Position numbers and translations under genes: made by a program. DNA of 20,000 nucleotides, taken from an uncultured virus (IMG/VR IMGVR_UViG_3300025418_001062). Taxonomy: Duplodnaviria; Heunggongvirae; Uroviricota; Caudoviricetes. Where the stretch lies: IMG/VR virus record IMGVR_UViG_3300025418_001062. One strand, written 5' to 3'. Shown here piece by piece: positions 5,436 through 20,000 of the stretch. Position 1 is the first letter of the stretch, and each line of letters opens with the position of its first letter. Under the pieces are notes generated by a model, which was not told the origin of the DNA, did not search any database, and saw only the letters and a program-made list of their open reading frames with translations.

Positions 5436-5480
5436 TTTGTATCCTTTCTGTCTGTCACCACCGCTTTTCGGTGATGAACC

Positions 5481-5509
5481 ATTGTACCACGGGTTTTTTG
5501 CTTTGTCAA
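5481..5509 (-). promoter_or_regulatory. cassette promoter + AAAAG-loop leader hairpin
   Basis: TTGACA-17-TACAAT, TG extension; hairpin CATCACCG-AAAAG-CGGTGGTG. Confidence 0.85.
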
Positions 5510-5512
5510 GTC

Positions 5513-5992
5513 CTAGTGGTGAAAATCTACCAAGACTAAGAATTGACGAGTGGGGTCTGTTTCCATGCGCTCACGGAGATACTTGAAGTCTTCGCACCAT
5601 TCTTTCAGGTCGTAGAAGTAGGCATCGTGCTTTCCGTTGCCCTCGGCAATGGCAATAGCCTGACGGAGATGGTAAAAATCAAGACTGCGTCCGGCATCAC
5701 GGCCATCAAAGTTGCGCACTTCTTCAATGATTGCCTCGGTGTCAATGTTGCTCAACAGAAACTTGATTTCATTCACTCGGTTGAGACGGGCACGCTCCAA
5801 AAAGTCCTCAAACTTTGTGGGGTCGTCTGCGTAGCAGTGAACCTCGCCCTCGTCCTCCCAGCGCCCCCCGATTTCTGCCCAGTCGCTCCACGGAAAAACG
5901 GGGTTGTCATCGTGCGTCAAAGCAATGTCTACTTGAGAGATTGCGTCTTCGGCGTTGTCAGCCTCTACTGCGATAAAATGTAATACGTGCAT
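5513..5992 (-). CDS. hypothetical phage protein (159 aa)
   Basis: start reassigned to ATG 5992 (AAAGGAG RBS); WSDWAEIGGRW motif and C-terminal LVDFH. Confidence 0.85.
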   Translation of the reverse strand: MHVLHFIAVEADNAEDAISQVDIALTHDDNPVFPWSDWAEIGGRWEDEGEVHCYADDPTKFEDFLERARLNRVNEIKFLLSNIDTEAIIEEVRNFDGRDAGRSLDFYHLRQAIAIAEGNGKHDAYFYDLKEWCEDFKYLRERMETDPTRQFLVLVDFHH

Positions 5993-6034
5993 TATGCTCC
6001 TTTGTCTCTGCACCGGCTTTTCCGGTACTCATCT

Positions 6035-6063
6035 ATTATAACAGGGGTTTTTTACTTTGTCAA
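6035..6063 (-). promoter_or_regulatory. cassette promoter (perfect consensus) + leader hairpin
   Basis: TTGACA-17-TATAAT, TG extension; hairpin ACCGG-AAAAG-CCGGT. Confidence 0.9.
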
Positions 6064-6064
6064 G

Positions 6065-6229
6065 TCAGTGGTCAAAGAAATCGAAAACTTTGTCCGTGAC
6101 TGCTACGTTCCACTGTAGCATCTCTACTAGCAAAGAATACAGCAGTTCGTTGGCTTCCGTCTCCTCGCCGTGAAACTTGCGCTCGGCGTATAGGATAAGG
6201 GCGCTCGACGCCTCGGTTGCGCTCCTCAC
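6065..6229 (-). CDS. hypothetical protein (54 aa)
   Basis: Not in ORF track; GTGA overlap, GGAGG RBS; MRSATEASSALILYAERKFHGEETEANELLYSLL... Confidence 0.6.
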   Translation of the reverse strand: MRSATEASSALILYAERKFHGEETEANELLYSLLVEMLQWNVAVTDKVFDFFDH

Positions 6230-6396
6230 TCTAAGCCCTCCCAGTCGTCGCTCGTCGCCCGTAGGTAAAACTCGGCGGGGTCTTCATCAAAAAGGTGCAG
6301 TTGCGCCTCGCTAAAATCCTCGGTGTCGAAGATAAAGAGGTCGTAATCCTCGGCGCTACCATAGTTGCCGTCAAAGCCTACATACATTTTTGCCAT
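6226..6396 (-). CDS. highly acidic small protein (56 aa)
   Basis: Not in ORF track; AAGGAG RBS; 16 D/E vs 2 K/R. Confidence 0.7.
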   Translation of the reverse strand: MAKMYVGFDGNYGSAEDYDLFIFDTEDFSEAQLHLFDEDPAEFYLRATSDDWEGLE

Positions 6397-6542
6397 TATT
6401 CGCTCTCCTTTAGAACGCCGTCAATGAATGAATAGTTGGTGTAAATGATGACCTGACCCTCGTTGTCAAGGTCAATGTCGCAATTCGGGAGTGCTTTCTG
6501 CACCGCCTCTACTAACTGCTCAATAGTGGTGTAGTTGGTCAT
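6396..6542 (-). CDS. small hypothetical protein (48 aa)
   Basis: Not in ORF track; GGAG RBS, TAATG coupling; MTNYTTIEQLVEAVQKALPNCDIDLDNEGQVIIYTN... Confidence 0.7.
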   Translation of the reverse strand: MTNYTTIEQLVEAVQKALPNCDIDLDNEGQVIIYTNYSFIDGVLKESE

Positions 6543-6748
6543 TAGTTCTCCTCCACGTCAATGCTGTATACTGATGCAAAACCCTTGTAGTCTTCGTAGC
6601 GCCAGCCCTCGGCTTCCGCTTCCGCTTCGCCGTCGGCATCTACGTCAAACCGGTACTCAACCATTACCGTCACGCTGTACGACGTAGGGCTGTCATCTTC
6701 AGTATCCTGAACCTCGGTGCTTACAACTTTCTTAGTGGCTGTCGCCAT
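6542..6748 (-). CDS. acidic hypothetical protein (68 aa)
   Basis: start reassigned to ATG 6748 (MATATKK; AAAGGA RBS). Confidence 0.75.
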   Translation of the reverse strand: MATATKKVVSTEVQDTEDDSPTSYSVTVMVEYRFDVDADGEAEAEAEGWRYEDYKGFASVYSIDVEEN

Positions 6749-6794
6749 TGGTAATCCTTTCGGTAAATTGCCGAGACGTTTTCTCGACCCAAAC

Positions 6795-6823
6795 AGTATG
6801 ACACACGCCGACGTCAATGTCAA
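6795..6823 (-). promoter_or_regulatory. cassette promoter + leader hairpin
   Basis: TTGACA-17-CATACT, TG extension; hairpin CGAGA-AAACG-TCTCG. Confidence 0.8.
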
Positions 6824-6920
6824 ATCATTTTCCCCATTTTTTTTTGAAAAACTCTTCGCGTACGCGATTCGCGTACATGCCCACGCGATACGCGATTTCG
6901 CGTATGCGCACACGCGATAG

Positions 6921-6955
6921 GGGGAGATTGCCCCCAAACTTCGGGGGCAACCTCC
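6921..6955 (-). terminator. GC-rich hairpin after ORF 6955-7227
   Basis: GGAGGTTGCCCCC...GGGGGCAATCTCC stem directly after stop; no clear U tract. Confidence 0.6.
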
Positions 6956-7227
6956 TAGTCCAATTCTTCCAACTCTTCGTCCTCGACCACAGTTTCCTCG
7001 CTCCACGGCTTGACTGTGATGTAGTAGCCCATTCTGTTCACAATGTGGTAGCCGTTCACAATGGTTCCGTCGTCCAGTTCCGTCCACACCATCTCGACGG
7101 GCTGACCCTGAACAAACTCCAGTTCCTCGCCGTAGGTCTCGAACATCTTGACAAAGTAGTATGCCCTAGATTGGAAATGATTATCTAGGGGCTGATACTG
7201 GTTCCACCAATCCTCGAACTTCATCAT
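6955..7227 (-). CDS. hypothetical phage protein
   Basis: ATGA-coupled; FETYGEELEFV...VWT...GYHIVNRMGYYITVKPW. Confidence 0.85.
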   Translation of the reverse strand: MMKFEDWWNQYQPLDNHFQSRAYYFVKMFETYGEELEFVQGQPVEMVWTELDDGTIVNGYHIVNRMGYYITVKPWSEETVVEDEELEELD

Positions 7228-7610
7228 ACCGCTACCACGGGGAGAAAGTCAAGGACAAACTCGTGAAACGACTTAGGCTCATAGACGGGTCGCCAGTGAC
7301 TGTCCGCAAAGTCTTCGCTGTAGACACGCTCATAGATAGAAACTTCTTCCTTTACGTGGTCTACTTCTACCAAGCGCCAAGCGTCGCCAGCCTCACGGGT
7401 ACTGATGCCGTAAGAAAGGTTGCTCTCGTCGCCTCCGAGGAGCGTCTGAAAGATGATACGATTGAGGTAGTCCTCATCGCCCCACCGGTCACGCCCCTTG
7501 TCCAGCCCCTGCGCCACAATTTCGGGCAGTCGGTAAGCAGTCCAATGAGTGTAAAAGTAAATCGGCTGTCCGTATTCACTAACTAACTTGATGTTTCCAC
7601 GGTCTCCCAC
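7224..7610 (-). CDS. hypothetical phage protein (128 aa)
   Basis: start reassigned to GTG 7610 (AAGGGA RBS); GDRGNI...IYFYTHW...RWGDEDYLNRIIF. Confidence 0.85.
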   Translation of the reverse strand: MGDRGNIKLVSEYGQPIYFYTHWTAYRLPEIVAQGLDKGRDRWGDEDYLNRIIFQTLLGGDESNLSYGISTREAGDAWRLVEVDHVKEEVSIYERVYSEDFADSHWRPVYEPKSFHEFVLDFLPVVAV

Positions 7611-7655
7611 GGTAATCCCTTCTGATAAAAGCACCGGCTTTTCCGGTACTCAACC

Positions 7656-7684
7656 ATTGTATCAGGGGTTTGTGTCCTTGTCAA
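7656..7684 (-). promoter_or_regulatory. cassette promoter + leader hairpin (overlaps 3' end of upstream ORF)
   Basis: TTGACA-17-TACAAT, TG extension; hairpin ACCGG-AAAAG-CCGGT. Confidence 0.85.
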
Positions 7685-7952
7685 GCCAAGTCCAACCTTT
7701 TTCTTCAAGGTCTTCTCGGAACTCCTGCGCCGCCTCTGGTGTGGTGAACGCTGTGGCCTTAGTTAGTGCAACTGCGTCTGGGCGAATACCCTTGTCACGC
7801 TGTAGCAGTCGCATAACCTGCGACTTCGGATTAGGCTTCTCTACGGCTTCCTGCAACTCTGTCCAAGTCACCTCGTCACTGCGCACAAGCAAAAGCCCGT
7901 CAGCGATGCCTATAAGCCCGTCTGCCGTCACGAAATACAAGTTCTGTGTCAT
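7662..7952 (-). CDS. hypothetical protein
   Basis: ATG 7952 with GGAAGG RBS; only an extended -10 (TGTCATACT, 7992-8000) upstream. Confidence 0.7.
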   Translation of the reverse strand: MTQNLYFVTADGLIGIADGLLLVRSDEVTWTELQEAVEKPNPKSQVMRLLQRDKGIRPDAVALTKATAFTTPEAAQEFREDLEEKGWTWLDKDTNP

Positions 7953-8011
7953 CTGATACCTTCCCATAAATAACCCGTCTGAGGGGCTTACAGTATGACA
8001 CGTAATTATTC

Positions 8012-8040
8012 TTGACTTTCACTCACGCATACGCTATAAT
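8012..8040 (+). promoter_or_regulatory. ORF-less divergent promoter
   Basis: TTGACT-17-TATAAT pointing into the CGCG block. Confidence 0.65.
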
Positions 8041-8171
8041 TAGTCGTGCGATAATTTTTCCCCATCTTTTTCTCAAAAACTGGCTACTTTCGCCCGTAGT
8101 TTCTTTAGAAATCCTCTCGCGTACGCGATTCGCGTACCCGCGCCTACGCGATTCGCGTATACACGCACGCG

Positions 8172-8221
8172 AAAAAAATGGCGGAGCCGGAGCGAACACA
8201 CGTTCGCCCCGACCCCCTGCC
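8172..8221 (-). terminator. terminator of ardC containing LexA-box-like palindrome
   Basis: hairpin + T7 on - strand; CGAAC-ACAC-GTTCG at 8193-8206. Confidence 0.65.
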
Positions 8222-8222
8222 A

Positions 8223-9113
8223 CTACTCGGCTTCCACCGTCTCCGTCTCTGCGCCGGTGATGAAGTTCGTAGCCTTCTGCGCCCGACCCACTGCCTTGAC
8301 TAGCATCTTCGGGTCGTTCTTCAGAACCTTCAGCCAAGACTTGATGTAAGCGGTGCTGTTGTCCAATGTCTCGGGCAGTACACCGGTCTCACTGCACAAA
8401 AACGCACTCGTGAACTCTGCCACCAATTCCTCTTCGCTGTAGAGTTCGCTACCGAAGTAGTGGTTTTCCACGATGCCGTCACGGTTCAGGCGTGACTTGT
8501 GACCGGTTGAGTGACCCATCTCGTGAAACGCCGTTGCATAGAACGAACTATCGCTCACGAAGTTGGACTGCTGGGGAAGTTGGATACCGTCTCGACTAGG
8601 TGAGTAGTAGGCTCGGTTTCCACCAAAGGCTAGGCTCGGTGCATTGTCACGGGCGAAGTAGTTGTCCATAATCTTCTGGGCGCTCTCGACGACCTCTACG
8701 GAATTGCGCGCAGTGGGCTTTTCGTAGGCTGGCGCTTTCCCGTCTTCCCACGTCGCTTGCTGGGCGTTGAACACGGTGAAGTAGCGCATCACCACTGCCT
8801 TCTTCTTGTCCCCGTCAGCGTTTTCGGTCTCAAACTGCTTCCACAGGACTACGGGAGTGCCCCTCTCGCCCTTCGTGACCACGCCTCCACGCTCGGTAAT
8901 CTGCTTGAACGTTCCCCACCACGGGCTTTCGTAGCCCTTGTCCATAGCCTCAAACGTCAAGAGCATAAAGTTCATACCCTTGTAGGTCTTGCCACTGCTC
9001 ATTGACTTAGGCTTGTATCCGTAGGCTATCCATTCCTTGCGCCACGGTGCGACGTTGTTTTCCAGTTGCTTGATGATAGTCTGGGCGACTACCTCGTAAG
9101 CGGTCTTGCTCAT
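8223..9113 (-). CDS. ardC: antirestriction protein ArdC (ssDNA-binding N-domain + zincin-like metallopeptidase domain)
   Basis: IIKQLE...PWRKEW, YKGMN, W.TFKQ..G..V.KGERG, YFTVFN..Q, AYYSP..D.I.LP, FHEMGHSTGHKSRLNR (HExxH), YSEEELVAE, YIKSWL. Confidence 0.93.
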   Translation of the reverse strand: MSKTAYEVVAQTIIKQLENNVAPWRKEWIAYGYKPKSMSSGKTYKGMNFMLLTFEAMDKGYESPWWGTFKQITERGGVVTKGERGTPVVLWKQFETENADGDKKKAVVMRYFTVFNAQQATWEDGKAPAYEKPTARNSVEVVESAQKIMDNYFARDNAPSLAFGGNRAYYSPSRDGIQLPQQSNFVSDSSFYATAFHEMGHSTGHKSRLNRDGIVENHYFGSELYSEEELVAEFTSAFLCSETGVLPETLDNSTAYIKSWLKVLKNDPKMLVKAVGRAQKATNFITGAETETVEAE

Positions 9114-9158
9114 TTGCTTGCTCCTTTGATTAGTTGCTCCGCATTTCGGAACGTATCC

Positions 9159-9187
9159 ATTATGACAGGTCTCGGCGTCGCTGTCAA
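9159..9187 (-). promoter_or_regulatory. ardC promoter + leader hairpin
   Basis: TTGACA-17-CATAAT, TG extension; hairpin TCCG-AAATG-CGGA; AAAGGAG RBS. Confidence 0.85.
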
Positions 9188-9234
9188 GTCAAAACGTATC
9201 TTTTTTTTAGATAGGGACTATCTGCCTTTGATAC

Positions 9235-9263
9235 TTGACTTTTGGTGTGGCCTATGGTATAAT
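9235..9263 (+). promoter_or_regulatory. ORF-less divergent promoter
   Basis: TTGACT-17-TATAAT with TG extension. Confidence 0.7.
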
Positions 9264-9388
9264 TTCCCCATACGTTTTCTAAAAATCCTCGGGTCGCTTC
9301 GCGTGCATACGTACGCGATACGCGATTCGCGTGCCTACATACGCGAAATCCCCCAATTGGGGGCAGGCTTGCGCCCACCCCCAACCGA

Positions 9389-9784
9389 TTAGAACGGGTC
9401 GCTGGTCACGCCCCAGTCGCAGAGGATACTGATAATCTGATAACTGTCGGTAGGCTCATCACCCCACGACATACCGCCGGTAATCACATACTCCTTACCG
9501 CCCAAGTTGAGAGACGCAACGTCACGAACCCAGCCCCTACCGAAGACTGACCTCACCTGCTCCAAGAGTTTGTTCAGAACGGTCTGGCGTTCTTCAGCGT
9601 CTTCTTTTTCATCACCGGTCTGCTCAACCCAGACACCGAAATCTTCCAACTCCTCCCAACGCTCAACGAACATTTCAGAGAAACGCTCGCAAACCTTCTC
9701 AGCCAATTCTGTGCTACTCTGCAGAGAGTAGCCCGTCGCATCAAACGGCCACTCACACACTGCGTAAGTAAAATCTGCACCCAT
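9389..9784 (-). CDS. acidic hypothetical protein
   Basis: AAAGGAG RBS; MGADF...ITGGMSWGDEPTD. Confidence 0.85.
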   Translation of the reverse strand: MGADFTYAVCEWPFDATGYSLQSSTELAEKVCERFSEMFVERWEELEDFGVWVEQTGDEKEDAEERQTVLNKLLEQVRSVFGRGWVRDVASLNLGGKEYVITGGMSWGDEPTDSYQIISILCDWGVTSDPF

Positions 9785-9826
9785 TGTAATCTCCTTTTCT
9801 CTGGTAGCACTTTTTGCTACTCAACC

Positions 9827-9855
9827 ATTATACAGACACCCTGACTAAATTGCAA
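9827..9855 (-). promoter_or_regulatory. cassette promoter + leader hairpin
   Basis: TTGCAA-17-TATAAT; hairpin GTAGCA-AAAAG-TGCTAC. Confidence 0.8.
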
Positions 9856-9962
9856 GTCATCTTTTCTAAAATCTCCTCGCGTACGCGATAACGTGCCTAT
9901 ACGCGAACTAAACCCAACGGGTCATCGGGGGCTGGGCTTTCGCCCAACCCCCTACCCGTTGC

Positions 9963-10370
9963 CTAAGCGAGACCCCTCAGGTTGTCTAGGGCGTTCTCCA
10001 AGTCCGCAAGCGAACTCTCAAGGTTGCTACTTGCATCTTCGGCGCTACTCTCAACGCTGTCGGCGCTCCGCTTCAGGTCATAGATTTCAGACTGCAAATC
10101 ATCAATAGCCGCTTTGCTATCCTCGGAGTTAGAGATAGCCGTCTCCACCAAATCAACCAAAGTATCAAAGTCTTCACGCTGAACGACGATAACGTCATCA
10201 CCCATCAGGGACTTAGCCAACTCAATAATCTGACCCTTGACATTTGAGAGGTATGCTTCACGCTCGGAGAGGTCATTCTCCTTAGCGGTCAATGTCCGGT
10301 ATCGGGCTTCCAACGCCAACTCGGTGCTGGTCTTTGAGGTCTCCTCAACCCCGTTGATGAACTGCTCCAT
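9963..10370 (-). CDS. acidic coiled-coil protein
   Basis: AAAGGA RBS; heptad-like helical sequence throughout. Confidence 0.85.
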   Translation of the reverse strand: MEQFINGVEETSKTSTELALEARYRTLTAKENDLSEREAYLSNVKGQIIELAKSLMGDDVIVVQREDFDTLVDLVETAISNSEDSKAAIDDLQSEIYDLKRSADSVESSAEDASSNLESSLADLENALDNLRGLA

Positions 10371-10418
10371 TGCTGTATTCCTTTCGGTAATTTGTCTCGG
10401 CGTTTCCTCGACCTAACT

Positions 10419-10447
10419 AGTATGCCATAGGTCGGGGCAAAAGTCAA
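10419..10447 (-). promoter_or_regulatory. cassette promoter + leader hairpin
   Basis: TTGACT-17-CATACT, TG extension; hairpin GTCGAGG-AAACG-CCGAGAC. Confidence 0.8.
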
Positions 10448-10494
10448 ATCGTTTTCCAACTATTTTTGAGATAGGGGCTATCTCCTTTTGATGC

Positions 10495-10523
10495 TTGACT
10501 TTTGTGGCCCCGTGTGCTAAAAT
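10495..10523 (+). promoter_or_regulatory. ORF-less divergent promoter
   Basis: TTGACT-17-TAAAAT with TG extension. Confidence 0.65.
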
Positions 10524-10653
10524 CTCCCCAACTTTATTTGTAAAATCTCCTCGCGTGCGTGTTCGCGTGTATGTGTACGCGATACGCGATTCGCGTGTAT
10601 GCGGGCATACGCGAAGGGGGTGTTTCAGGTGGGGGTCGCCCCCCACCCTACTC

Positions 10654-11112
10654 CTACTCGTCGTCTCCCTCATTCCACGGCACTACCTCAAACATCGCAC
10701 CCATTTCGTCGTGGCTAGAGCGAACGACGGTCAGGGTCTTGTTGTCTTCGCTCAACTCCCAGCGAAGAATGAAGTCCCCGTTCAGGGTCAGGTTGTTCAG
10801 CAGTTCCCTGAACGCGGTCAGTCGTCCCGTGTGTCCGCTACCGTTAGTCCAACCCATACGCCGACCATAGATAGCAAACTCGTCGGTTTCGTTCGCCAGG
10901 CACCACGGAGTAAAGGCGTTGTAGGCAAAGTCTTCGGTTGCGAAGTCCCAGCACTCGCCGGAGCAGGACTCATAGGCAGGTGTGCAGGGTGTCCCGCAGT
11001 CGCAGTTTTCGGGATAGGTGTCGTCCGTGAAAGTCATCTCGCAACTAGGGCAGTGGTAGCAGGTGCAACTAGAGGTGATTACTCCCTTAGCAGGGTAAGT
11101 GGTTGTGGTCAT
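10654..11112 (-). CDS. Cys-rich (probable Zn-binding) hypothetical protein
   Basis: AAAGGAG RBS; CTCYHCPSC...CDC..C....CSGEC; C-terminal RSSHDEMG. Confidence 0.85.
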   Translation of the reverse strand: MTTTTYPAKGVITSSCTCYHCPSCEMTFTDDTYPENCDCGTPCTPAYESCSGECWDFATEDFAYNAFTPWCLANETDEFAIYGRRMGWTNGSGHTGRLTAFRELLNNLTLNGDFILRWELSEDNKTLTVVRSSHDEMGAMFEVVPWNEGDDE

Positions 11113-11152
11113 TGTTTCTCCTTTTCGTTATACCGCTTTTCGGTATGTATCC

Positions 11153-11181
11153 ATTATGGCAGGTGCAGGGAAGAAAGTCAA
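11153..11181 (-). promoter_or_regulatory. cassette promoter + leader hairpin
   Basis: TTGACT-17-CATAAT, TG extension; hairpin ATACCG-AAAAG-CGGTAT. Confidence 0.85.
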
Positions 11182-11228
11182 GCCGGTTTCAATCTTTTTT
11201 TGAGATAGGCATTATCTGTAGAATTGAC

Positions 11229-11257
11229 TTGACTTGTGGCCGACGTTATGGTATAAT
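11229..11257 (+). promoter_or_regulatory. ORF-less divergent promoter
   Basis: TTGACT-17-TATAAT with TG extension. Confidence 0.7.
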
Positions 11258-11428: not shown

Positions 11429-11453
11429 GTGCTGTGATAGCCACCCCACTCCC

Positions 11454-13252: not shown

Positions 13253-13534
13253 CTAATCCTTGCAACAGCCCCCGCAGTCACCGCAGTCACCGCACCGCCC
13301 ATCTCGGCTAGAGAGGTCATAGGGCGCTTCGCAGGTGTCGCACTCTCCTGTTACATCATTATCATACACAGTTAGGTCAGTCAATTCACAGTCGTAGTGA
13401 TAATAGTCTCCATCTGTATAAGTGCTAATGGCATGTGTTTCTGGTGTCTCTCCCTGGGCTAAATCGCTCTCAAAGAAATCCACTTCGTAGTAGCGCACCG
13501 TTCGCACAATCGCACTGTAGTGTTTCTCTCCCAT
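13253..13534 (-). CDS. acidic protein with C-terminal Cys cluster (93 aa)
   Basis: ATG 13534 coupled to upstream TAA; CDTC...CGDCGDCGGCC. Confidence 0.75.
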   Translation of the reverse strand: MGEKHYSAIVRTVRYYEVDFFESDLAQGETPETHAISTYTDGDYYHYDCELTDLTVYDNDVTGECDTCEAPYDLSSRDGRCGDCGDCGGCCKD

Positions 13535-13710
13535 TACTTGCGCCCCCTTCCAGCGCCCTGACGAGTTCCACGCATCGCTTGCTTGTGGTTGCGACGTGCG
13601 CACTTACCGCACACAGTCCCTGATAGGTAGCCCAATGGGTCATTGTGCCCACATCGTGCGACCATTGTGTCTAGCGCCTCTAACGTGCGCTCTAATTGGT
13701 TAGTCTTCAT
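13534..13710 (-). CDS. small basic Zn-finger-like protein (58 aa)
   Basis: Not in ORF track; AAAGG RBS; RCGH...CGKC and basic tail. Confidence 0.7.
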   Translation of the reverse strand: MKTNQLERTLEALDTMVARCGHNDPLGYLSGTVCGKCARRNHKQAMRGTRQGAGRGRK

Positions 13711-13747
13711 TTCTGCCTTTCATCGCCGGTCATTTACCGACCTAAAC

Positions 13748-13776
13748 AGTATGCCACGCCCAGCCAAGAATTGCAA
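13748..13776 (-). promoter_or_regulatory. cassette promoter + leader hairpin
   Basis: TTGCAA-17-CATACT, TG extension; hairpin CGGT-AAATG-ACCG. Confidence 0.75.
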
Positions 13777-13874
13777 ATCATTTTGAGAGATAGCAAGTAT
13801 CTTTTTTCTAGATACCTCGAGACTTCGCGTACGCGCGTAGGCGGGCGCACACGCGAATGGGGGGCAGAGTAGAG

Positions 13875-13888
13875 CGAACGTGTGTTCG
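13875..13888. promoter_or_regulatory. LexA (Cheo/SOS)-box-like palindrome inside terminator hairpin
   Basis: CGAAC-GTGT-GTTCG. Confidence 0.5.
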
Positions 13889-13902
13889 CCCTACCCTTGC
13901 GC

Positions 13903-14070
13903 CTACCGTGAGAGAAACTCTTCCACGCTCTCCCGTGAATACGTCCCGCCCTCTTCGTCATCTTGTTCTGAGAGAAACGCCATAATCGCCTGATTAGTCA
14001 CCCAGCCCATTCCGCCAAAGTGTTCCCCGATAGCCTTAGCCACCTCGGTCATCGTCATAGTGTCTTCCAT
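13903..14070 (-). CDS. acidic small protein (55 aa)
   Basis: Not in ORF track; AAAGG RBS, own promoter and terminator; MEDTMTMTEVAKAIGEHFGGMGW... Confidence 0.75.
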   Translation of the reverse strand: MEDTMTMTEVAKAIGEHFGGMGWVTNQAIMAFLSEQDDEEGGTYSRESVEEFLSR

Positions 14071-14106
14071 AGTTGCCTTTCTTGTCGGTCATTTACCGAC
14101 AAAACC

Positions 14107-14135
14107 AGCATAGCAGGGGCAGACAAAAAAAGCAA
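14107..14135 (-). promoter_or_regulatory. cassette promoter + leader hairpin
   Basis: TTGCTT-17-TATGCT, TG extension; hairpin GTCGGT-AAATG-ACCGAC. Confidence 0.75.
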
Positions 14136-14205
14136 GTTCATTTTCCAAAAACTTCCTCGGGCACGCGATTCGCGTAAGTGCGCACGCGAACCCCCCTTCC
14201 TGCCT

Positions 14206-14460
14206 TTACCAGCGCAGGGCGTTGAGGTGATAGCGGTTCCCGCCGAGACGGTCTCCACACAAGTCACAAGGGGCGTAGGAGAATGAGGGGCTATCGTTAT
14301 ACTCCACGCTGAATGAGGTGCGAGGCCACTCGTCAAGGCCGGCCAAAATACGTTCTTCGTCAGTAGGGTCTAAGTCCATCTCACGGACACCGTACTGGCT
14401 CGCATAAACGCAGTCGGGGCAAACAAGAAGGGTGATTACTTCATAAACTTCGTTAGGCAT
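14206..14460 (-). CDS. Zn-binding hypothetical protein
   Basis: CPDC...FSYAPCDLCGDRLGGNRY; GAGG RBS. Confidence 0.85.
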   Translation of the reverse strand: MPNEVYEVITLLVCPDCVYASQYGVREMDLDPTDEERILAGLDEWPRTSFSVEYNDSPSFSYAPCDLCGDRLGGNRYHLNALRW

Positions 14461-14500
14461 AATTTCCTCTTTTCTCTTAGGGCGTTTTCCCTATGCAACC

Positions 14501-14529
14501 ATTGTACAGGCTCCCCCCAACTTTGTCAA
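14501..14529 (-). promoter_or_regulatory. cassette promoter + leader hairpin
   Basis: TTGACA-17-TACAAT; hairpin TAGGG-AAAACG-CCCTA. Confidence 0.8.
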
Positions 14530-14663
14530 GTCGGGCACGCGAGAATAATTTCCCCCCATTTGCTTTGTAAAATCTCCAAATCTCGCGCGCTGTACGCGTT
14601 CGCGTGCGAGCGTACGCGATTCGCGTGCGCGGGCGTGCGTGCGCATACGCGAGGCTTCGACGT

Positions 14664-14706
14664 AAAAAAAGTCGGGGCAGTCAGTCCTGAGACCGACCAC
14701 CCCGAC
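14664..14706 (-). terminator. intrinsic terminator
   Basis: GTCGGGG...CCCCGAC stem followed by T7 on - strand. Confidence 0.75.
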
Positions 14707-14714
14707 CCCTTTGC

Positions 14715-14909
14715 CTAGTAGATAGAAACGAGGTGATGCACAGCGAGGTAATCGTTGTTGTTGTTGTCGTTGGGGGCGAGACCAAGACCTTCCAGCAGGG
14801 CGTTGAGGTGCTTTGCCAATTCGGTTGCTTCTGCTTCCGGATAGTCACCGGCGAGGTAGATGACTTCGTCGTTGTTATCCAGCACCGCTACACAAAACAG
14901 TTTTTCCAT
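14715..14909 (-). CDS. small hypothetical protein
   Basis: AAAGG RBS, own promoter and terminator. Confidence 0.8.
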   Translation of the reverse strand: MEKLFCVAVLDNNDEVIYLAGDYPEAEATELAKHLNALLEGLGLAPNDNNNNDYLAVHHLVSIY

Positions 14910-14946
14910 TGTTGCCTTTCGTTGCCGGTCATTTGCCGACCCTAAA

Positions 14947-14976
14947 ATTGTGCCATACGGAGAGGGTCGGCGTCAA
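14947..14976 (-). promoter_or_regulatory. cassette promoter + leader hairpin
   Basis: TTGACG-18-CACAAT, TG extension; hairpin GTCGGC-AAATG-ACCGGC. Confidence 0.65.
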
Positions 14977-15117
14977 TTCCATTTGAGAGATAGCCACTAT
15001 CTGTTTTCTAGATAACCCAAAACTCTCCCGCACGCGATTCGCGTAAACACGTACGCGAGGTATTGTCCCTGAAATCTCGCGTGCATACATACGCGAAGAG
15101 AGGGGGGAGACCGAGGG

Positions 15118-15131
15118 CGAACACTTGTTCG
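15118..15131. promoter_or_regulatory. LexA-box-like palindrome inside terminator hairpin
   Basis: CGAAC-ACTT-GTTCG. Confidence 0.5.
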
Positions 15132-15147
15132 CCCTCAGCCCCTCTGC

Positions 15148-15348
15148 CTAGATAACCTTGATGAACTTGCGGTTGTCAAAGGCGTTTTGCGCCGACGTGA
15201 TGAACGCCTGCGCTTGGTCGGCGTGGTCGAAGAAGAACGTCACGCCTGCGAACGATACCGTCACGCTCCGTGTCAAATCGTTGCAGACAACTTCCGTAAT
15301 CTCCTCTTGCGAAGGGAACACATCTACGCTGTGAATGTTGCTAATCAT
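15148..15348 (-). CDS. small hypothetical protein (66 aa)
   Basis: start reassigned to ATG 15348 (MISNIHSVDVF). Confidence 0.75.
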   Translation of the reverse strand: MISNIHSVDVFPSQEEITEVVCNDLTRSVTVSFAGVTFFFDHADQAQAFITSAQNAFDNRKFIKVI

Positions 15349-15387
15349 TGCTGTCTCTTTTCCTACCGGCTTTTCCGGTATGTATCC

Positions 15388-15415
15388 ATTGTAGCAGGTT
15401 TTCGGCACGATGCAA
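15388..15415 (-). promoter_or_regulatory. cassette promoter + leader hairpin
   Basis: TTGCAT-16-TACAAT, TG extension; hairpin TACCGG-AAAAG-CCGGTA. Confidence 0.7.
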
Positions 15416-15535
15416 CTCAAAAAGACAGATACCCCTTATCTTTTTTTGAGATACCCCAAAGCCTCGGGTGCGCGATTCGCGTGCGCACATACGCGAATCG
15501 TGTGCGCCCGTGCACGTACGCGAGGGGGGTACTGC

Positions 15536-15730
15536 TTATTTTTTGGGTAGCCAGACCCCCTCGCCCTCGCTGTCGCACTCCTCTTCGAAGCATGAGAACC
15601 ACACGGGGCAGTCCTCACCCTCTTCGGGAATGAACTCCCCTAGACCCATCTCCCCGCATTCCATGCACCGCACACGGTACTCGTCAAAGGTTGAGTTGTA
15701 GGTGATGGTGTAAGAGGTGAACTTTGCCAT
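15536..15730 (-). CDS. acidic Cys-containing small protein
   Basis: AAAGGAG RBS; CMEC...C...C...C. Confidence 0.8.
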   Translation of the reverse strand: MAKFTSYTITYNSTFDEYRVRCMECGEMGLGEFIPEEGEDCPVWFSCFEEECDSEGEGVWLPKK

Positions 15731-15770
15731 TGGTGGCTCCTTTTGTTTGGGGCGTTTCCCCGTTGGAACC

Positions 15771-15800
15771 AGTGTAGCACGTCAATCCGGCAATTGCCAA
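15771..15800 (-). promoter_or_regulatory. cassette promoter + leader hairpin
   Basis: TTGGCA-18-TACACT, TG extension; hairpin GGGG-AAACG-CCCC. Confidence 0.65.
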
Positions 15801-15924
15801 TCAAAAGGGCAGATACCGCCCATCTATTTTGTAGATACCTCGAGGTCTTCGCGTGAGCGGGCGGGCGGGCACGTACGCGAATCGCGTGCGCGGGTAGGCG
15901 CACACACGCGAGAGGGGCGATAGC

Positions 15925-15957
15925 AAAAATCGGGGGCAGTCCGAAGACTACCCCCGA
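15925..15957 (-). terminator. intrinsic terminator with cUUCGg loop
   Basis: TCGGGGGTAGTCTTCGGACTGCCCCCGA + T5 on - strand. Confidence 0.8.
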
Positions 15958-15969
15958 CCCTACTGTTTA

Positions 15970-16065
15970 TTAGTCTTCGTTGTATCCGCCAACGTCGTAG
16001 CGGTCAGCGAGACCGCTAATCCAAGAGGTCACACCGTAGTCTTCGTAGTTGTCAAAGTCTTCCAT
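15970..16065 (-). CDS. acidic micropeptide (31 aa)
   Basis: Not in ORF track; AAAGGAG RBS, own promoter and terminator; MEDFDNYEDYGVTSWISGLADRYDVGGYNED. Confidence 0.7.
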   Translation of the reverse strand: MEDFDNYEDYGVTSWISGLADRYDVGGYNED

Positions 16066-16104
16066 TTTGTTGCTCCTTTGTCGAGGCGTTTCCCCAACAC
16101 TTCC

Positions 16105-16133
16105 AAGATACCAGCCTTTTTGCACTTTGTCAA
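16105..16133 (-). promoter_or_regulatory. cassette promoter + leader hairpin
   Basis: TTGACA-17-TATCTT, TG extension; hairpin GGGG-AAACG-CCTC. Confidence 0.8.
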
Positions 16134-16300
16134 GTCAATTTGTCGTGCACGCGAGAATAATTTTTCCCCTTTGGTTTTGTAAAATCTCCTCATCGTGTGC
16201 GTTGCGTACGCGATTGCGCGGGTGCGCACGCGATTGTGCGGGTGTGCGCACACGGTCGCGTATGTGCGGGTGCGCGCGGGCACGCGAAGCGGTGTTGTGT

Positions 16301-16338
16301 AAAAAATCGGGGAGCCGAGCCGAAGCCCGACCCCCCGA
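16301..16338 (-). terminator. intrinsic terminator
   Basis: imperfect GC stem with CTTCGG loop + T6 on - strand. Confidence 0.7.
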
Positions 16339-16342
16339 CCCC

Positions 16343-16579
16343 CTACAGACTTGCGAAGCCCTGACGAACGTAGTTCATCTGCTTTGAGGTGGTGCGAGAG
16401 TACTTTTGCTCATTGACCCACTTTGCGCCGGTCTTAGGGCAGTATGAGGCCATCAGTGTCCAGTAGGAATACACGGCATACACGCCGTTTTCCCACGTCC
16501 CCCTAAGGTTTGACCCCTGGAACTCCTTGAGGTTTGCAATCGCCTTTGCGCTTGCGTTGTTTGCAATGTGCTTTGCCAT
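16343..16579 (-). CDS. small basic phage protein (78 aa)
   Basis: start reassigned to ATG 16579 (AAAGGAG RBS); VYSYWT...KYSRTTSKQ motif. Confidence 0.85.
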   Translation of the reverse strand: MAKHIANNASAKAIANLKEFQGSNLRGTWENGVYAVYSYWTLMASYCPKTGAKWVNEQKYSRTTSKQMNYVRQGFASL

Positions 16580-16617
16580 TTTGGCTCCTTTTGTTGAGGC
16601 GTTTCCCCGACCTAAAC

Positions 16618-16646
16618 AGTATGCCACAGGTCGGCGAGAATTGCAA
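16618..16646 (-). promoter_or_regulatory. cassette promoter + leader hairpin
   Basis: TTGCAA-17-CATACT, TG extension; hairpin GTCGGGG-AAACG-CCTCAAC. Confidence 0.75.
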
Positions 16647-16805
16647 ATCGTTTTGAGAGATAGACACTATCTCCCCAATAGATACCTAAAAACCTAGAGG
16701 TCTTCGCGTACGCGGGGGCGTGCGTGCGTACGCGATTGCGGGTATGCGCGTGTTCGCGTGCGCGTGTGTATGCGCATACGCGAATGGGTGGGGTTGGTCA
16801 GGGAG

Positions 16806-16819
16806 CGAACACCTGTTCG
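16806..16819. promoter_or_regulatory. LexA-box-like palindrome inside terminator hairpin
   Basis: CGAAC-ACCT-GTTCG within GGTCAGGGAG...CTCCCTGACC stem. Confidence 0.5.
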
Positions 16820-16836
16820 CTCCCTGACCTGTTCGG

Positions 16837-17001
16837 CTAGTAGCCGAGGAAGGTGGCGAGTTCTCCCCACGTCACGAAGCGGGGCGTTCCGTCCTCTTTC
16901 CACAGCGAGACGTGATGCACGCCGTAGCGGGCGAGAATGGCACGAGTGCGCTCAGGGGTAAGAACAGTCTCACGACTACTTGGGATAAGGTTGTTTGCCA
17001 T
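16837..17001 (-). CDS. small hypothetical protein (54 aa)
   Basis: start reassigned to ATG 17001 (AAAGGAG RBS). Confidence 0.8.
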   Translation of the reverse strand: MANNLIPSSRETVLTPERTRAILARYGVHHVSLWKEDGTPRFVTWGELATFLGY

Positions 17002-17039
17002 TTTGGCTCCTTTTGTTGGGGCTTTTCCCCGACCTAAAC

Positions 17040-17068
17040 AGTATGCCACACATCTAGGCGGATTGCAA
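17040..17068 (-). promoter_or_regulatory. cassette promoter + leader hairpin
   Basis: TTGCAA-17-CATACT, TG extension; hairpin GTCGGGG-AAAAG-CCCCAAC. Confidence 0.75.
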
Positions 17069-17160
17069 ATCATTTTAGCAGATAGGTATTATCTCCCCTA
17101 GAGATACCCAAAAATCTCCAAAGTCTTCGCGTGTGTGCATACGCGATTGCGCCCGCGTGC

Positions 17161-17244
17161 GTGTTCGCGTGCGTGCGTGTGCGCCCGCGTGTTCGCGTGC
17201 GTGCGTGTGCGCCCGCGTGTTCGCGTGCGTGCGTGTGCGCCCGC
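17161..17244 (+). repeat. perfect tandem repeat 3 x 28 bp
   Basis: gtgttcgcgtgcgtgcgtgtgcgcccgc x3. Confidence 0.9.
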
Positions 17245-17267
17245 GTACGCGAGGCAATGCTAGGGCG

Positions 17268-17299
17268 AAAATCGGGGGCAGTCCGAAGACCACCCCCGA
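17268..17299 (-). terminator. intrinsic terminator with cUUCGg loop
   Basis: near-identical to 15925-15957. Confidence 0.75.
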
Positions 17300-17309
17300 C
17301 CCCCCCCGA

Positions 17310-17540
17310 CTAAAAACGCTCGGTGAAGATTGCCCACCAAGTAAAGATTGAGTAGGGCAGTGAGGCCGCCAGTCCCACGAAGCACACAAGGCGAGACAGG
17401 AACGAAGCCGGCGGTGTCGAAACGAACAGGTAAGCAGTGAAGAAGCACATTACCACAAGGAACGAAAAGCCGATAAGGCAAAAGGCGTAGAGCAACTTAG
17501 ATACGATGCGCTTACGCTTACGGCGGGAGATGCGTGACAT
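17310..17540 (-). CDS. small 2-TM membrane protein with basic N-terminus
   Basis: MSRISRRKRKR + two hydrophobic segments; own promoter and terminator. Confidence 0.75.
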   Translation of the reverse strand: MSRISRRKRKRIVSKLLYAFCLIGFSFLVVMCFFTAYLFVSTPPASFLSRLVCFVGLAASLPYSIFTWWAIFTERF

Positions 17541-17580
17541 TGGAACTCTCTTTCTTGAGGGGCGTTTCCCCTACCTAAAT

Positions 17581-17609
17581 AGATTAGCACAAGGCAAGGA
17601 CAAAAGCAA
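17581..17609 (-). promoter_or_regulatory. cassette promoter + leader hairpin
   Basis: TTGCTT-17-TAATCT, TG extension; hairpin AGGGG-AAACG-CCCCT. Confidence 0.7.
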
Positions 17610-17747
17610 ATCACTTTCACAGATAGCCATTATCTTCCCCAGAGATACCCTAAAACTCCTCGCGTGCGCCCGTGTGCGTGCGGGCACGCGATTGCGCAGG
17701 TGTTCGCGTGCGCGGGCGTGCCTACATACGCGAAGCAATGTTATGCG

Positions 17748-17782
17748 AAAAAAAATCGGGGGGCCAAACTTCAGCCCCCCGA
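17748..17782 (-). terminator. intrinsic terminator
   Basis: TCGGGGGG...CCCCCCGA stem + T8 on - strand. Confidence 0.75.
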
Positions 17783-17790
17783 CCTTCTCC

Positions 17791-17949
17791 CTAGCCGATG
17801 ACAACCTGGACGCTCTCGGAAGCGCCGTTGGCCTTCAGTTCTTGCAACCAGGTCAGCCGACCGGCCTCGGCCTCGGCGGTGTTAGCAAAACCGGAACGGA
17901 TACCATAGCAAGTACCGTCAAGGACAAGGAACAAAGCAATGCGGGGCAT
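17791..17949 (-). CDS. small hypothetical protein (52 aa)
   Basis: Not in ORF track; MPRIALFLVLDGTCYGIRSGFANTAEAEAGRL...; own promoter and terminator. Confidence 0.7.
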   Translation of the reverse strand: MPRIALFLVLDGTCYGIRSGFANTAEAEAGRLTWLQELKANGASESVQVVIG

Positions 17950-17990
17950 TGGAACTCTCTTTCTTATCGGGGCGTTTCCCTGATGTATCT

Positions 17991-18019
17991 AGATTAGCAC
18001 AGGGCACTAGCAAAGTCAA
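17991..18019 (-). promoter_or_regulatory. cassette promoter + leader hairpin
   Basis: TTGACT-17-TAATCT, TG extension; hairpin ATCAGGG-AAACG-CCCCGAT. Confidence 0.75.
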
Positions 18020-18173
18020 ATCACTTTTACAGATAGTCCCAATCTTTTTTTTAGATACCCCAAAACCCTTCGCGTCTGCCCGTGCGCGCGTGCGTACGCG
18101 ATTGCGTAGGCGTGTGTGCGCTCGCTATCGCGTGCGCGTGTGTGCGTGCGCGTACGCGATGGGTCTCTATCAG

Positions 18174-18208
18174 AAAAATCGGGGGCTACCCCTAAGGGCA
18201 ACCCCCGA
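18174..18208 (-). terminator. intrinsic terminator
   Basis: TCGGGGG...CCCCCGA stem + T5 on - strand. Confidence 0.75.
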
Positions 18209-18217
18209 CTTTTCCGA

Positions 18218-18373
18218 CTAGGCGAAGACTACGCTGGCGCGTGGCTTGGTGCTGATGCCTGCGTACTGCTCGTTGAGTTCGCTTGCGCGCTCAAGAGCGG
18301 CCTCAAGGTCATCATAGATGCCGGCGGAGATAAAGCCGGCGGAGTTGCTAAAAACAACGGAGATGCGGAACAT
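18218..18373 (-). CDS. small hypothetical protein (51 aa)
   Basis: Not in ORF track; MFRISVVFSNSAGFISAGIYDDLEAALERASELNEQY... Confidence 0.7.
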   Translation of the reverse strand: MFRISVVFSNSAGFISAGIYDDLEAALERASELNEQYAGISTKPRASVVFA

Positions 18374-18412
18374 ACTGCCTACTTTCTATAAGGGCGTTTC
18401 CCTTATGTATCC

Positions 18413-18441
18413 ACTATACCAGCCCAACGGCAAAACGTGAC
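18413..18441 (-). promoter_or_regulatory. cassette promoter (extended -10, weak -35) + leader hairpin
   Basis: TGG-TATAGT; hairpin ATAAGGG-AAACG-CCCTTAT. Confidence 0.6.
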
Positions 18442-18601
18442 ACAAAAAAACAGATAGGTCACATCACTAAAAGAGATGGCACTTTCTCTGAAAATCCTCG
18501 CGTCTGCCCGTGTGCGTGCGCGTACGCGATAGGGTGCGCCCCCACACCCCCGCGCAATCGTGTGCGCCCGCGTGTGCGCGCCTACGCGAAGCAGTGGCGA
18601 G

Positions 18602-18638
18602 AAAAAAATCGGGGGCAACTCCTAAGAGCGACCCCCGA
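18602..18638 (-). terminator. intrinsic terminator
   Basis: TCGGGGG...CCCCCGA stem + T7 on - strand. Confidence 0.75.
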
Positions 18639-18642
18639 CCCT

Positions 18643-18780
18643 TTACAAAATCTCAACCACAACTCGGTCTTTCGGGTAGAACGTGCGCGCGCTCTCGAAG
18701 AAAAACTGAACTTCCTGCTTGTCCTGAAGCGGGAACGTCTTCTGTGCGCCATTCTCGCTAGTCACGATTGCTTGGAACAT
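18643..18780 (-). CDS. small hypothetical protein (45 aa)
   Basis: Not in ORF track; AAAGGGG RBS; MFQAIVTSENGAQKTFPLQDKQEVQFFFESARTFYPKDRVVVEIL. Confidence 0.7.
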   Translation of the reverse strand: MFQAIVTSENGAQKTFPLQDKQEVQFFFESARTFYPKDRVVVEIL

Positions 18781-18822
18781 TGGAACCCCTTTGATAACCG
18801 CCGGTCATTTACCGACCCTAAA

Positions 18823-18851
18823 AGTATCTCACACATTTCGGAAAAAGTCAA
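18823..18851 (-). promoter_or_regulatory. cassette promoter + leader hairpin
   Basis: TTGACT-17-GATACT, TG extension; hairpin GTCGGT-AAATG-ACCGGC. Confidence 0.7.
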
Positions 18852-19001
18852 GTCGTGCACGCGATAAATTTTCCCCAACGCTTTTTGGAAAATTGCCACT
18901 TCGCGTGCGTCACATACGCGATTTGTGCCCGCACCCGCGCAATCGCGTGCGCCCGCACACGCACACACACGCGAGGCAAAATCGGAGAAAAAATCAGGGA
19001 G

Positions 19002-19015
19002 CGAACACACGTTCG
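19002..19015. promoter_or_regulatory. LexA-box-like palindrome inside terminator hairpin
   Basis: CGAAC-ACAC-GTTCG; stem followed by T6 on - strand. Confidence 0.5.
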
Positions 19016-19031
19016 CCCCCCGACCTTTCTC

Positions 19032-19208
19032 CTACTTCACGGACATAATGCTCGGGTGCGTGAGGTAGTCAGCGAACTGGTCAATCTGGTAGAGCGCCTC
19101 GTTATCTACGGGGTCAAGGTTCCCGTTCGTGACGTAGTGCATACCTGCCCAGTGAAATGCGCCACGAACCAAAGCAAACTGCTCGGGGGTGAGGGTGAGG
19201 GTAATCAT
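19032..19208 (-). CDS. small hypothetical protein (58 aa)
   Basis: start reassigned to ATG 19208 (AAAGG RBS). Confidence 0.8.
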   Translation of the reverse strand: MITLTLTPEQFALVRGAFHWAGMHYVTNGNLDPVDNEALYQIDQFADYLTHPSIMSVK

Positions 19209-19246
19209 AACTGCCTTTCGTTTCGGGGCATTTCCCCGATACATCA

Positions 19247-19991: not shown

Positions 19992-20000
19992 GGATAATTT

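Follow-up and report, generated by a model that had tools for sequence, protein, structure and literature searches.

Covarying leader hairpins at the predicted transcript starts of 25 gene cassettes in an uncultured tailed phage

We describe a leader hairpin that recurs 25 times in one stretch of an uncultured tailed phage (IMGVR_UViG_3300025418_001062). The window is that whole stretch of DNA, 20,000 nucleotides (nt) long. Window coordinates are used throughout unless a contig is named. Its closest described counterparts are of several kinds. The E. coli ompA type is a 5'-terminal stabilizing stem-loop. The N4-type promoter hairpin is a DNA hairpin that lies upstream of the start and is read by a virion polymerase. 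The boxB hairpin of lambda and P22 has boxA upstream and is present at one or two sites.

Other counterparts are given here from portions of the papers cited, as are all papers cited below. The promoter early stem-loop (PeSL) cassettes of T4-type phages (RB49/phi1, T4/PST, and KVP40/nt-1) place a strong host-type promoter, a stem-loop, and a Shine-Dalgarno (SD) sequence before small ORFans in a variable region (PMC2839356, PMC4122927). Their repeats are recombination joints at which genes are added, dropped, or swapped and mini-circles can arise. In mycobacteria, the DrrS stem begins at the first nucleotide, pairs +1, and stabilizes the RNA (PMC5360333). At least two added 5' nt destabilize it, and the stem lifted a reporter three-fold. 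The ANTAR-target RNAs of Actinobacteria need two tandem stems with hexaloops that carry A1 and G4 (PMC8164766). Start-associated sequences (SAS), extended SAS (ESAS), and intergenic repeats lie upstream of small-gene starts in Cluster K mycobacteriophages and in Microbacterium phages EC/EF/EG/EI, where their function is unknown (PMC7302621).

The 25 leader hairpins all belong to the minus strand and fall within 5456 to 19240. Each lies 12 to 13 nt 3' of a -10 hexamer. The loop is AAACG in 10 copies, AAAAG in 7, AAATG (AAAUG in RNA) in 7, and AAAACG in 1. A chance control scanned positions 5400 to 19300 for AAA[ACT]G with at least 5/6 paired flanks. It gave 23 matches on the minus strand and 1 on the plus strand, against a mean of 1.96 (maximum, 7) in 200 dinucleotide shuffles. 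The copies are as follows.

5456 to 5476, minus strand: leader hairpin, AAAAG (loop 5468-5464); -10 ends at 5481, ATG at 5435
6010 to 6028, minus strand: leader hairpin, AAAAG; ATG at 5992
6770 to 6788, minus strand: leader hairpin, AAACG; ATG at 6748
7631 to 7649, minus strand: leader hairpin, AAAAG; GTG at 7610
9136 to 9152, minus strand: leader hairpin, AAATG; precedes ArdC
9804 to 9820, minus strand: leader hairpin, AAAAG, A-U closing pair; ATG at 9784
10394 to 10412, minus strand: leader hairpin, AAACG, 2x2 GA/GA internal loop; ATG at 10370
11130 to 11146, minus strand: leader hairpin, AAAAG, in a chimeric cassette with its crossover, relative to contig G002, in the -10 to -1 stretch
11773 to 11791, minus strand: leader hairpin, AAACG; ATG at 11759
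12328 to 12344, minus strand: leader hairpin, AAATG; precedes the ArdA-like gene
13001 to 13019, minus strand: leader hairpin, AAACG, 2x2 internal loop; ATG at 12987
13725 to 13741, minus strand: leader hairpin, AAATG, U-A closing pair; ATG at 13710
14084 to 14100, minus strand: leader hairpin, AAATG; ATG at 14070
14477 to 14494, minus strand: leader hairpin, hexaloop AAAACG; ATG at 14460
14924 to 14940, minus strand: leader hairpin, AAATG, C.A closing mismatch; ATG at 14909
15363 to 15381, minus strand: leader hairpin, AAAAG; ATG at 15348
15746 to 15764, minus strand: leader hairpin, AAACG, 4 bp, 3 unpaired 5' nt; ATG at 15730
16080 to 16098, minus strand: leader hairpin, AAACG, two G.U pairs; ATG at 16065
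16593 to 16611, minus strand: leader hairpin, AAACG; ATG at 16579
17015 to 17033, minus strand: leader hairpin, AAAAG; ATG at 17001
17556 to 17574, minus strand: leader hairpin, AAACG; ATG at 17540
17966 to 17984, minus strand: leader hairpin, AAACG; ATG at 17949
18388 to 18406, minus strand: leader hairpin, AAACG; ATG at 18373
18800 to 18816, minus strand: leader hairpin, AAATG; ATG at 18780
19222 to 19240, minus strand: leader hairpin, AAATG; ATG at 19208

Covariation was counted on the window and its relatives. The leader set was the scan list minus 16 rows (false registers, non-array hits, and an ATAGG hairpin at 11915 of G002), plus all 25 window copies. G002 is a record that is 99% identical to the window and extends it leftward. 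The set contained 85 leaders with 66 distinct hairpins, and the count used 63 distinct pentaloop hairpins. Paired cells made up 87.3%, against 51.4% after shuffling and 33 to 45% in slid controls, and double-sided changes numbered 152 against 46.5 in shuffles, with 7 of 7 pairs varying on both sides; the copies are related by descent, and these figures are not p-values. A prior sequence-only reading had described 25 hairpins, a few nt past each -10, that keep their pairing as their stems change. The shuffled scan and the covariation bear this out. The tandem GA/GA internal loops in the stems at 10394-10412 and 13001-13019 are also kept in relatives.

The predicted +1 was set at the 7th base after the -10. 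It is a purine in 24 of the 25 window copies. Across the 85 leaders, observed pairing (column-shuffled value in parentheses) was 0.74 (0.48) at +1, 0.86 (0.68) at +2, and 0.81 (0.40) at +3. Upstream it was 0.31 (0.32) at -1, 0.24 (0.22) at -2, 0.74 (0.70) at -3, and 0.42 (0.53) at -4. At the predicted transcription start site (TSS), the stem leaves no 5' nt unpaired in 20 of the 25 window copies, one in 4, and three in 1. The 0 to 1 unpaired 5' nt expected of a 5'-terminal stabilizer are thus found in 24. Judged by its covariation, the hairpin is a real, selected RNA structure that is confined to the predicted transcript and pairs the predicted +1. A DNA hairpin has no reason to end at a start site, and we therefore read the element as a 5'-terminal RNA stem. 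The sequence-only reading had placed a selected structure at the predicted TSS, and covarying pairing does begin at +1. It had also offered a template-strand DNA hairpin signal, which fails because above-chance pairing stops there.

The loop appears to be selected in its own right. On a cassette tree of the 85 leaders, loop positions 1 to 5 changed 0, 2, 3, 17, and 0 times, against 8 to 22 changes in stem columns and 18 to 37 in spacer columns, the extended -10 TG excepted; the detection scan required positions 1 and 5 and did not require positions 2 and 3. A loop-blind promoter matrix found AAAHG (H is A, C, or T) at 72 of 82 array promoters and at 20 of 20 in the window. By these counts the loop is under purifying selection of its own and is more conserved than shared descent alone explains. 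The consensus had been given as AAANG. This stands for A, C, or T at N, which account for all 83 pentaloops of the first set, and not for G, which is never found there although a change from A to G would be a transition. AAAGG does occur once in the array of a related phage, G138. AAAGG is an SD core, which makes avoidance of G at position 4 plausible.

Known stability rules do not explain the loop. In the published pentaloop model, an A.G first mismatch earns no bonus, and the favored closing pair is C-G (PMC9074901). Among the 10 pentaloop consensus families in the portion of the catalog consulted, none matches G[AAAHG]C, and the nearest, GUAAMKC, has U at loop position 1 (PMC9830547). Stability itself is a poor explanation as well, since the terminators of these cassettes often use UUCG, GAAA, and GCAA. 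In two relatives (L103 at 113 and 816; G003 at 15215 and 21975), the only hairpin at the promoter holds the SD in its loop (e.g., CCG AAAGG CGG). Such hairpins are a possible origin of the AAAHG loop. Mimicry of a CRISPR repeat (Racr) was considered and dropped because GAAAN is in the loop and not in a 3' tail.

The hairpins belong to a repeated cassette. The SD is unpaired and lies 0 to 10 nt 3' of the stem, and the start codon lies 13 to 23 nt 3' of it. The spacing is thus fixed toward the -10 and variable toward the SD and the AUG. Judged by eye, about 20 of 26 gene ends run straight into a strong GC-rich hairpin; many of these hairpins carry a U-tract, and their loops are often UUCG, GAAA, or GCAA. 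The unit consists of a host-type promoter, a 5' hairpin, an exposed SD, a short gene or genes, and usually its own terminator; the promoter, the free SD, and the gene-end terminators are seen at the array copies.

4629 to 19290, minus strand: array of promoter-hairpin-SD-gene-terminator cassettes with short genes, read as early and anti-defense
8223 to 9113, minus strand: ArdC anti-restriction gene (ArdcN and MPTase-PolyVal)
11994 to 12308, minus strand: ArdA-like anti-restriction gene (PF07275)
8183 to 8216, minus strand: example terminator, a GC-rich hairpin and U-tract past the cassette stop codon

The array is read as an early, anti-defense region because its short minus-strand genes include ArdC and the ArdA-like gene. 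Two cassette junctions have been mapped. The cassette at 11140 combines the promoter of the G002 504 unit with the hairpin and gene from the G002 1084 unit, and the crossover falls within 12 shared bases in the -10 to -1 stretch. The 812 unit of L134 has a promoter and hairpin of the 19233 type, joined at the SD to a gene of the 17977 type. With one crossover in the -10/leader and the other at the SD, the leader serves as a recombination joint. For these two junctions, comparison of the units shows that the promoter-leader repeat swaps genes between cassettes. At L103 2600-2640 there is a decayed, empty cassette. It has the promoter and the hairpin minus one base but no gene, and the next promoter follows directly.

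Strong plus-strand promoters without a gene behind them were found in the array at 8012, 9235, 10495, 11229, 12428, and 13092, and also at 4177. They point into CGCG repeats and the upstream cassette's terminator and are kept in L097, L134, and L156. Antisense kissing between their transcripts and the loops was rejected. Only the 8012 unit was above shuffle (P = 0.01); the 9235 unit gave 0.08, and the others of the seven gave 0.5 to 0.64. A further minus-strand unit (7695-7997) overlaps the promoter at 8012. It contains a gene at 7952-7695 and a -10-like CATACT at 7997-7992, with no clear -35 and no AAANG hairpin.

The sequence-only reading had suggested searches of Rfam and of phage genomes. 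Rfam 15 gave 14 matches at E values of at most 5, and none reached the gathering threshold. Pattern scans recovered the same cassette in further contigs, namely G003, G006, L158-L160, L103/L124, L134, L155/L156, L097, L123, and others. Core proteins in G003 and G006 share about 30 to 88% identity with their G002 counterparts. More distant members were retrieved via RecA, and 8 of 16 such records were searched, some in part. A loop-blind scan of G138 (complete; RecA, 68%) found 12 5' hairpins. Eleven are G[RNRNG]C, with the loops GCAAG, AGATG, AGACG, AAGCG, AAAGG, AAACG, and AAAAG, and only 4 are AAAHG; another scan found four further AAACG copies that the loop-blind scan missed. In G135, four hairpins are G[ACAAG]C, one is G[AAACG]C, and about 11 belong to a second class, C[AARTM]G. 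The array of G139 (complete; RecA, 63%) keeps hairpins, but the motif is in 0 of 11, and many cassettes have no hairpin. Some array cassettes of L103 and L160 also have none. In the records compared, the motif recurs in many related phages and its loop consensus is lineage-bound, AAAHG here and G[RNRNG]C family-wide.

Promoters outside the arrays were also compared. Among 63 promoter-like sites outside arrays or on the other strand, 16 carry 5' hairpins, mostly with other loops, although L123 and L164 do carry AAAATG/AAAAG. One such site is in the window.

37 to 54, plus strand: 5'-terminal hairpin with loop ATTGGG behind promoter 2-30, an internal control (G002 row -11714)

The hairpin had been described as absent from plus-strand gene promoters. 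At 2-30, that holds only for the AAANG loop. Single AAANG 5' hairpins are present at promoters in L065, L066, L067, L075/L328, L077, L078, L082, L090, L129, and L164 (36 to 66% GC); the pattern that found them demanded the loop, and they are no measure of enrichment. A strict promoter-plus-GAAANGC pattern had 104 matches in bacterial genomes, of which just 8 had a stem of at least 5 bp. The 121 genomes of the class of G010 had 0 to 5 matches each, like the reversed control. G010 is labeled Ca. Aldehydirespiratoraceae, and we take its class to be Acidimicrobiia. The hairpin is not a host regulon, given the lack of enrichment in these 121 genomes of the likely host class.

The explanation to which we give slightly better than an even chance is that the hairpin is a 5' stabilizer in a repeated, shuffled early-gene cassette, with a loop that is selected structurally and has no dedicated reader. 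The host sigma-A RNA polymerase would start at the purine that lies 7 nt past the -10, a start site taken from the spacing. The first 17 to 19 nt would fold into a predicted 6- to 7-bp stem that pairs +1 and whose selection is shown by covariation. With 0 to 1 free 5' bases, the mRNA may, by analogy with DrrS, be shielded from depyrophosphorylation by RppH-type enzymes and from 5'-dependent cleavage by RNase J/E. The protection would raise the output of short anti-defense genes right after entry; the SD remains free 0 to 10 nt downstream. The promoter-leader repeat doubles, at the two mapped junctions, as a joint for exchanging genes among cassettes. The loop would be a compact, purine-rich, non-SD motif that folds reliably, spares the SD, and was spread by cassette duplication without a reader.

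That the stem is a 5' stabilizer, which this explanation shares with the chief alternative below, is quite probable. The loop consensus varies in G138 and G135 and is absent from G139, and 5' hairpins with other loops occur elsewhere; for these reasons the stem is best read in this way. The sequence-only reading had called the structure protein-recognized and not just a generic 5' stabilizer. Selection on the loop is borne out, recognition of the loop by a protein is the less likely reading, and the stem is better taken as the stabilizer that had been played down.

Several observations weigh against a stabilizer with an unread loop. Loop positions 2 and 3 change just 2 and 3 times, a strong constraint for a merely inert loop. 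G-C closes the loop in 65 of the 85 leaders and C-G in 1, although the pentaloop model favors C-G and has no A.G bonus (PMC9074901). The terminators of the same cassettes often use UUCG, GAAA, or GCAA. G139 dispenses with the conserved loop. The second class of G135 has 4 to 5 unpaired 5' nt, which is poor for RppH protection. In the strand test, a weak one, G.U and A.C mismatches numbered 29 and 21 (11 and 5 in the window alone).

The chief alternative is that the stem protects the 5' end and the loop tags the message for a specific partner, most likely a phage protein, that represses translation or times decay jointly. We consider it possible but on the whole unlikely. The stem end is 13 to 23 nt from the AUG, and a bound partner would lie where the 30S footprint ends and would act on all early messages together. 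A1, A2, A3, and G5 are nearly invariant while the stems turn over, and AAAHG is present at the 72 of 82 promoters from the loop-blind matrix. The loop also falls outside the known extra-stable or cataloged pentaloop families in the portions of the literature cited. Its consensus varies by lineage, with AAAHG here, both ACAAG and C[AARUM]G in G135, and no consensus in G139, and the missing enrichment in the 121 genomes speaks against a host regulon. G138 alone, however, tolerates GCAAG, AGAUG, AAAGG, and AAGCG, and some cassettes of L103 and L160 do without the hairpin. No candidate reader was identified among the listed genes that are in motif-bearing phages and not in G139, of which only one was folded. 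This is an acidic 110-amino-acid ORFan beside the array (L059 11718-12047). It has a pLDDT of 94.7, 14 homologues, and no Foldseek match in the PDB. A conserved candidate small RNA of about 100 nt lies directly left of window base 1 (G002 [L033], about 11829-11745, minus strand). Its homologues are at G003 2802, G006 19590, L115 1496, L123 2429, L124 5201, G138 47715, G139 71946, and G132 4797. It appears to have its own -10 (TATACT), followed by a 5' hairpin that covaries and has a C-rich loop. Next come a stretch complementary to a start codon and an SD (CAU..UUCCUUUC) and then a terminator; the anti-SD part is missing from the G006 copy. It matches several phage ribosome sites by 10 to 13 nt, including the window site at 5452. 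It was rejected as a partner of the loop, since it matches ribosome sites and not the loop and is not specific to early genes. A phage-encoded reader of the G[RNRNG]C loop, carried at the closed 5' end of each early mRNA, and this small RNA might together form a post-transcriptional early-to-middle switch, with reader and loop co-evolving by lineage, which we rate as somewhat less likely again. It would be an RNA-tag regulon, of a kind not found for actinophages in the literature searched.

The remaining alternatives are improbable. The loop could be neutral baggage, with duplication and recombination homogenizing the cassettes and template switching repairing the stems in a way that mimics covariation. 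Neighboring copies do have common stems, cassette swaps are seen, G135 has a recently spread whole-hairpin class, and the phage encodes RecA, a RecE-like exonuclease, and Erf. Conversion would homogenize the arms too, yet the arms have 8 to 22 changes, and loop positions 1, 2, 3, and 5 have only 0 to 3; position 4 is free (17 changes), as is the spacer outside the extended -10 TG (18 to 37), and template switching would not end at +1. The idea is largely refuted. It is just as improbable that a purine-rich initial transcript and an early hairpin aid polymerase escape from near-consensus sigma-A promoters. The escape window is +7 to +12. The loop lies at +7 to +12, the promoters are near consensus, and the 5' arms are G-rich, but the loop tracks the stem apex and not a fixed distance from +1 (it starts at +7 to +12 across copies), and position 4 is mostly C/U and avoids G. 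A boxB/nut-like antitermination tag read by an N-like protein, which had been proposed for this hairpin, is less probable still. The short stem, the purine-rich pentaloop near a promoter, and the terminators after most genes would suit it. However, boxB loops are GNRA-like, G1..A5 (PMC12550061, PMC9830547), and the loops here are A1..G5 in 83 of 83 pentaloops from a scan that required A1 and G5 (AAAHG at 72 of 82 in the loop-blind scan). The stem begins at the predicted +1, so that a boxA could not be transcribed ahead of it. Read-through past the terminators at about 20 of 26 gene ends would be redundant, because each cassette is served by its own promoter. No N-like arginine-rich protein was named in PHROGs/Pfam scans, in which such proteins are easily missed, and a search of PMC12591593 for boxB terms had no matches. 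Least probable of all is a DNA hairpin signal, on the template strand or as a cruciform, that would act like the N4 virion-polymerase hairpin or as a recombination site. The DNA is palindromic, and A.C mismatches, which would be G.T on the template strand, are not rare at 21 against 29 G.U. The excess pairing ends exactly at the predicted +1, though, the hairpin is downstream of intact -35/-10 boxes, both mapped crossovers are outside the loop, and no phage RNA polymerase was among the 48 G002 proteins scanned (the record is 65% complete).

The scan of those G002 proteins retrieved two WhiB-like factors, a tail sheath, DnaB, RecA, a RecE-like exonuclease, and Erf. G002 also encodes an Rpf-type transglycosylase domain. 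The WhiB-like factors, the Rpf-type domain, and others point to an actinobacterium as the host. The nearest named cellular relatives of its RecA are labeled Actinobacteria/Acidimicrobiales, which is a hint only. The annotated phage collection contained no DNA relative, and tblastn with the capsid and a second late protein found no match there. The window encodes a GroES co-chaperonin at 2136-2405 (plus strand), which is kept beside the array in relatives and was not found in G139.

The spacers of 4300-20000 are modular. They contain 184 CGCG (against 4 in 1-4300), 52 TCGCGT, and 71 ACGCGA. Upstream of promoters there are 13 TTCCCCA..TTT..AAAA boxes and 11 AGATAG/CTATCT palindromes. G138 and G139 are likewise CGCG-rich. 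These repeats are possibly protein-binding or decoy sites. DnaA-box-like 9-mers (TTTTCCACA, TTATCCACA) are present twice at 12571/12582 (12571-12590) and four times in tandem at the right end (19950-19991).

If the stabilizer reading is right, this phage clade hard-wires a cap-like 5' RNA hairpin into a plug-in expression cassette for anti-defense genes. Its dozens of natural compensatory variants would be a test set for 5'-end decay rules in Actinobacteria, whose RppH enzyme was not yet identified in the DrrS paper (PMC5360333), and would offer a compact, portable stabilizer. A reader of the loop, if there is one, would give a phage a new means to control all early mRNAs simultaneously. The remaining surprises are the selection on the loop and the adjacent anti-SD RNA.

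The literature searched contained no description of this leader-hairpin element, and its likeness to known systems is in parts. In common with lambda/P22 boxB it has a short stem, a purine-rich pentaloop, one variable position, and an early promoter nearby. It differs in its A1..G5 loop (G1..A5 and GNRA-like in boxB; PMC12550061), its place at +1, its 25 sites, and their own promoters. ANTAR-target RNAs likewise have a conserved A and G in the hairpin loop of 5' leaders (PMC8164766). The window hairpin has one stem and, in 24 of 25 copies, a pentaloop, with A1 and G5, and it is ruled out as an ANTAR target on the first two counts. An N4-type template-strand promoter is ruled out by the position downstream of the -35/-10 and by pairing only in transcribed bases. 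SAS/ESAS are conserved in sequence; a covarying 5'-terminal stem found no mention in the portion of PMC7302621 consulted, whose figure S10 could show a related hairpin.

The closest likeness is to PeSL cassettes and to 5' stabilizers. The array resembles the PeSL repeats in its layout and in its crossovers inside the repeat. The PeSL stem-loop, however, mostly occupies the -35 to -10 interval or overlaps the -10, and it terminates upstream transcription (PMC2839356, PMC4122927), whereas the window hairpin is at +1 of the new transcript. It also differs in having no U-tract, a conserved loop, a separate terminator past the gene, and a probable actinobacterial host. As in DrrS, the stem starts at the 5' end, with 0 to 1 unpaired bases, and the SD is free. 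Neither DrrS (PMC5360333) nor the ompA type is known to need a fixed loop, whereas the 25 window copies keep one loop while their stems covary. As a structure, the hairpin cassette is well supported as a variant of phage promoter/stem-loop cassettes combined with 5' stabilizer hairpins.

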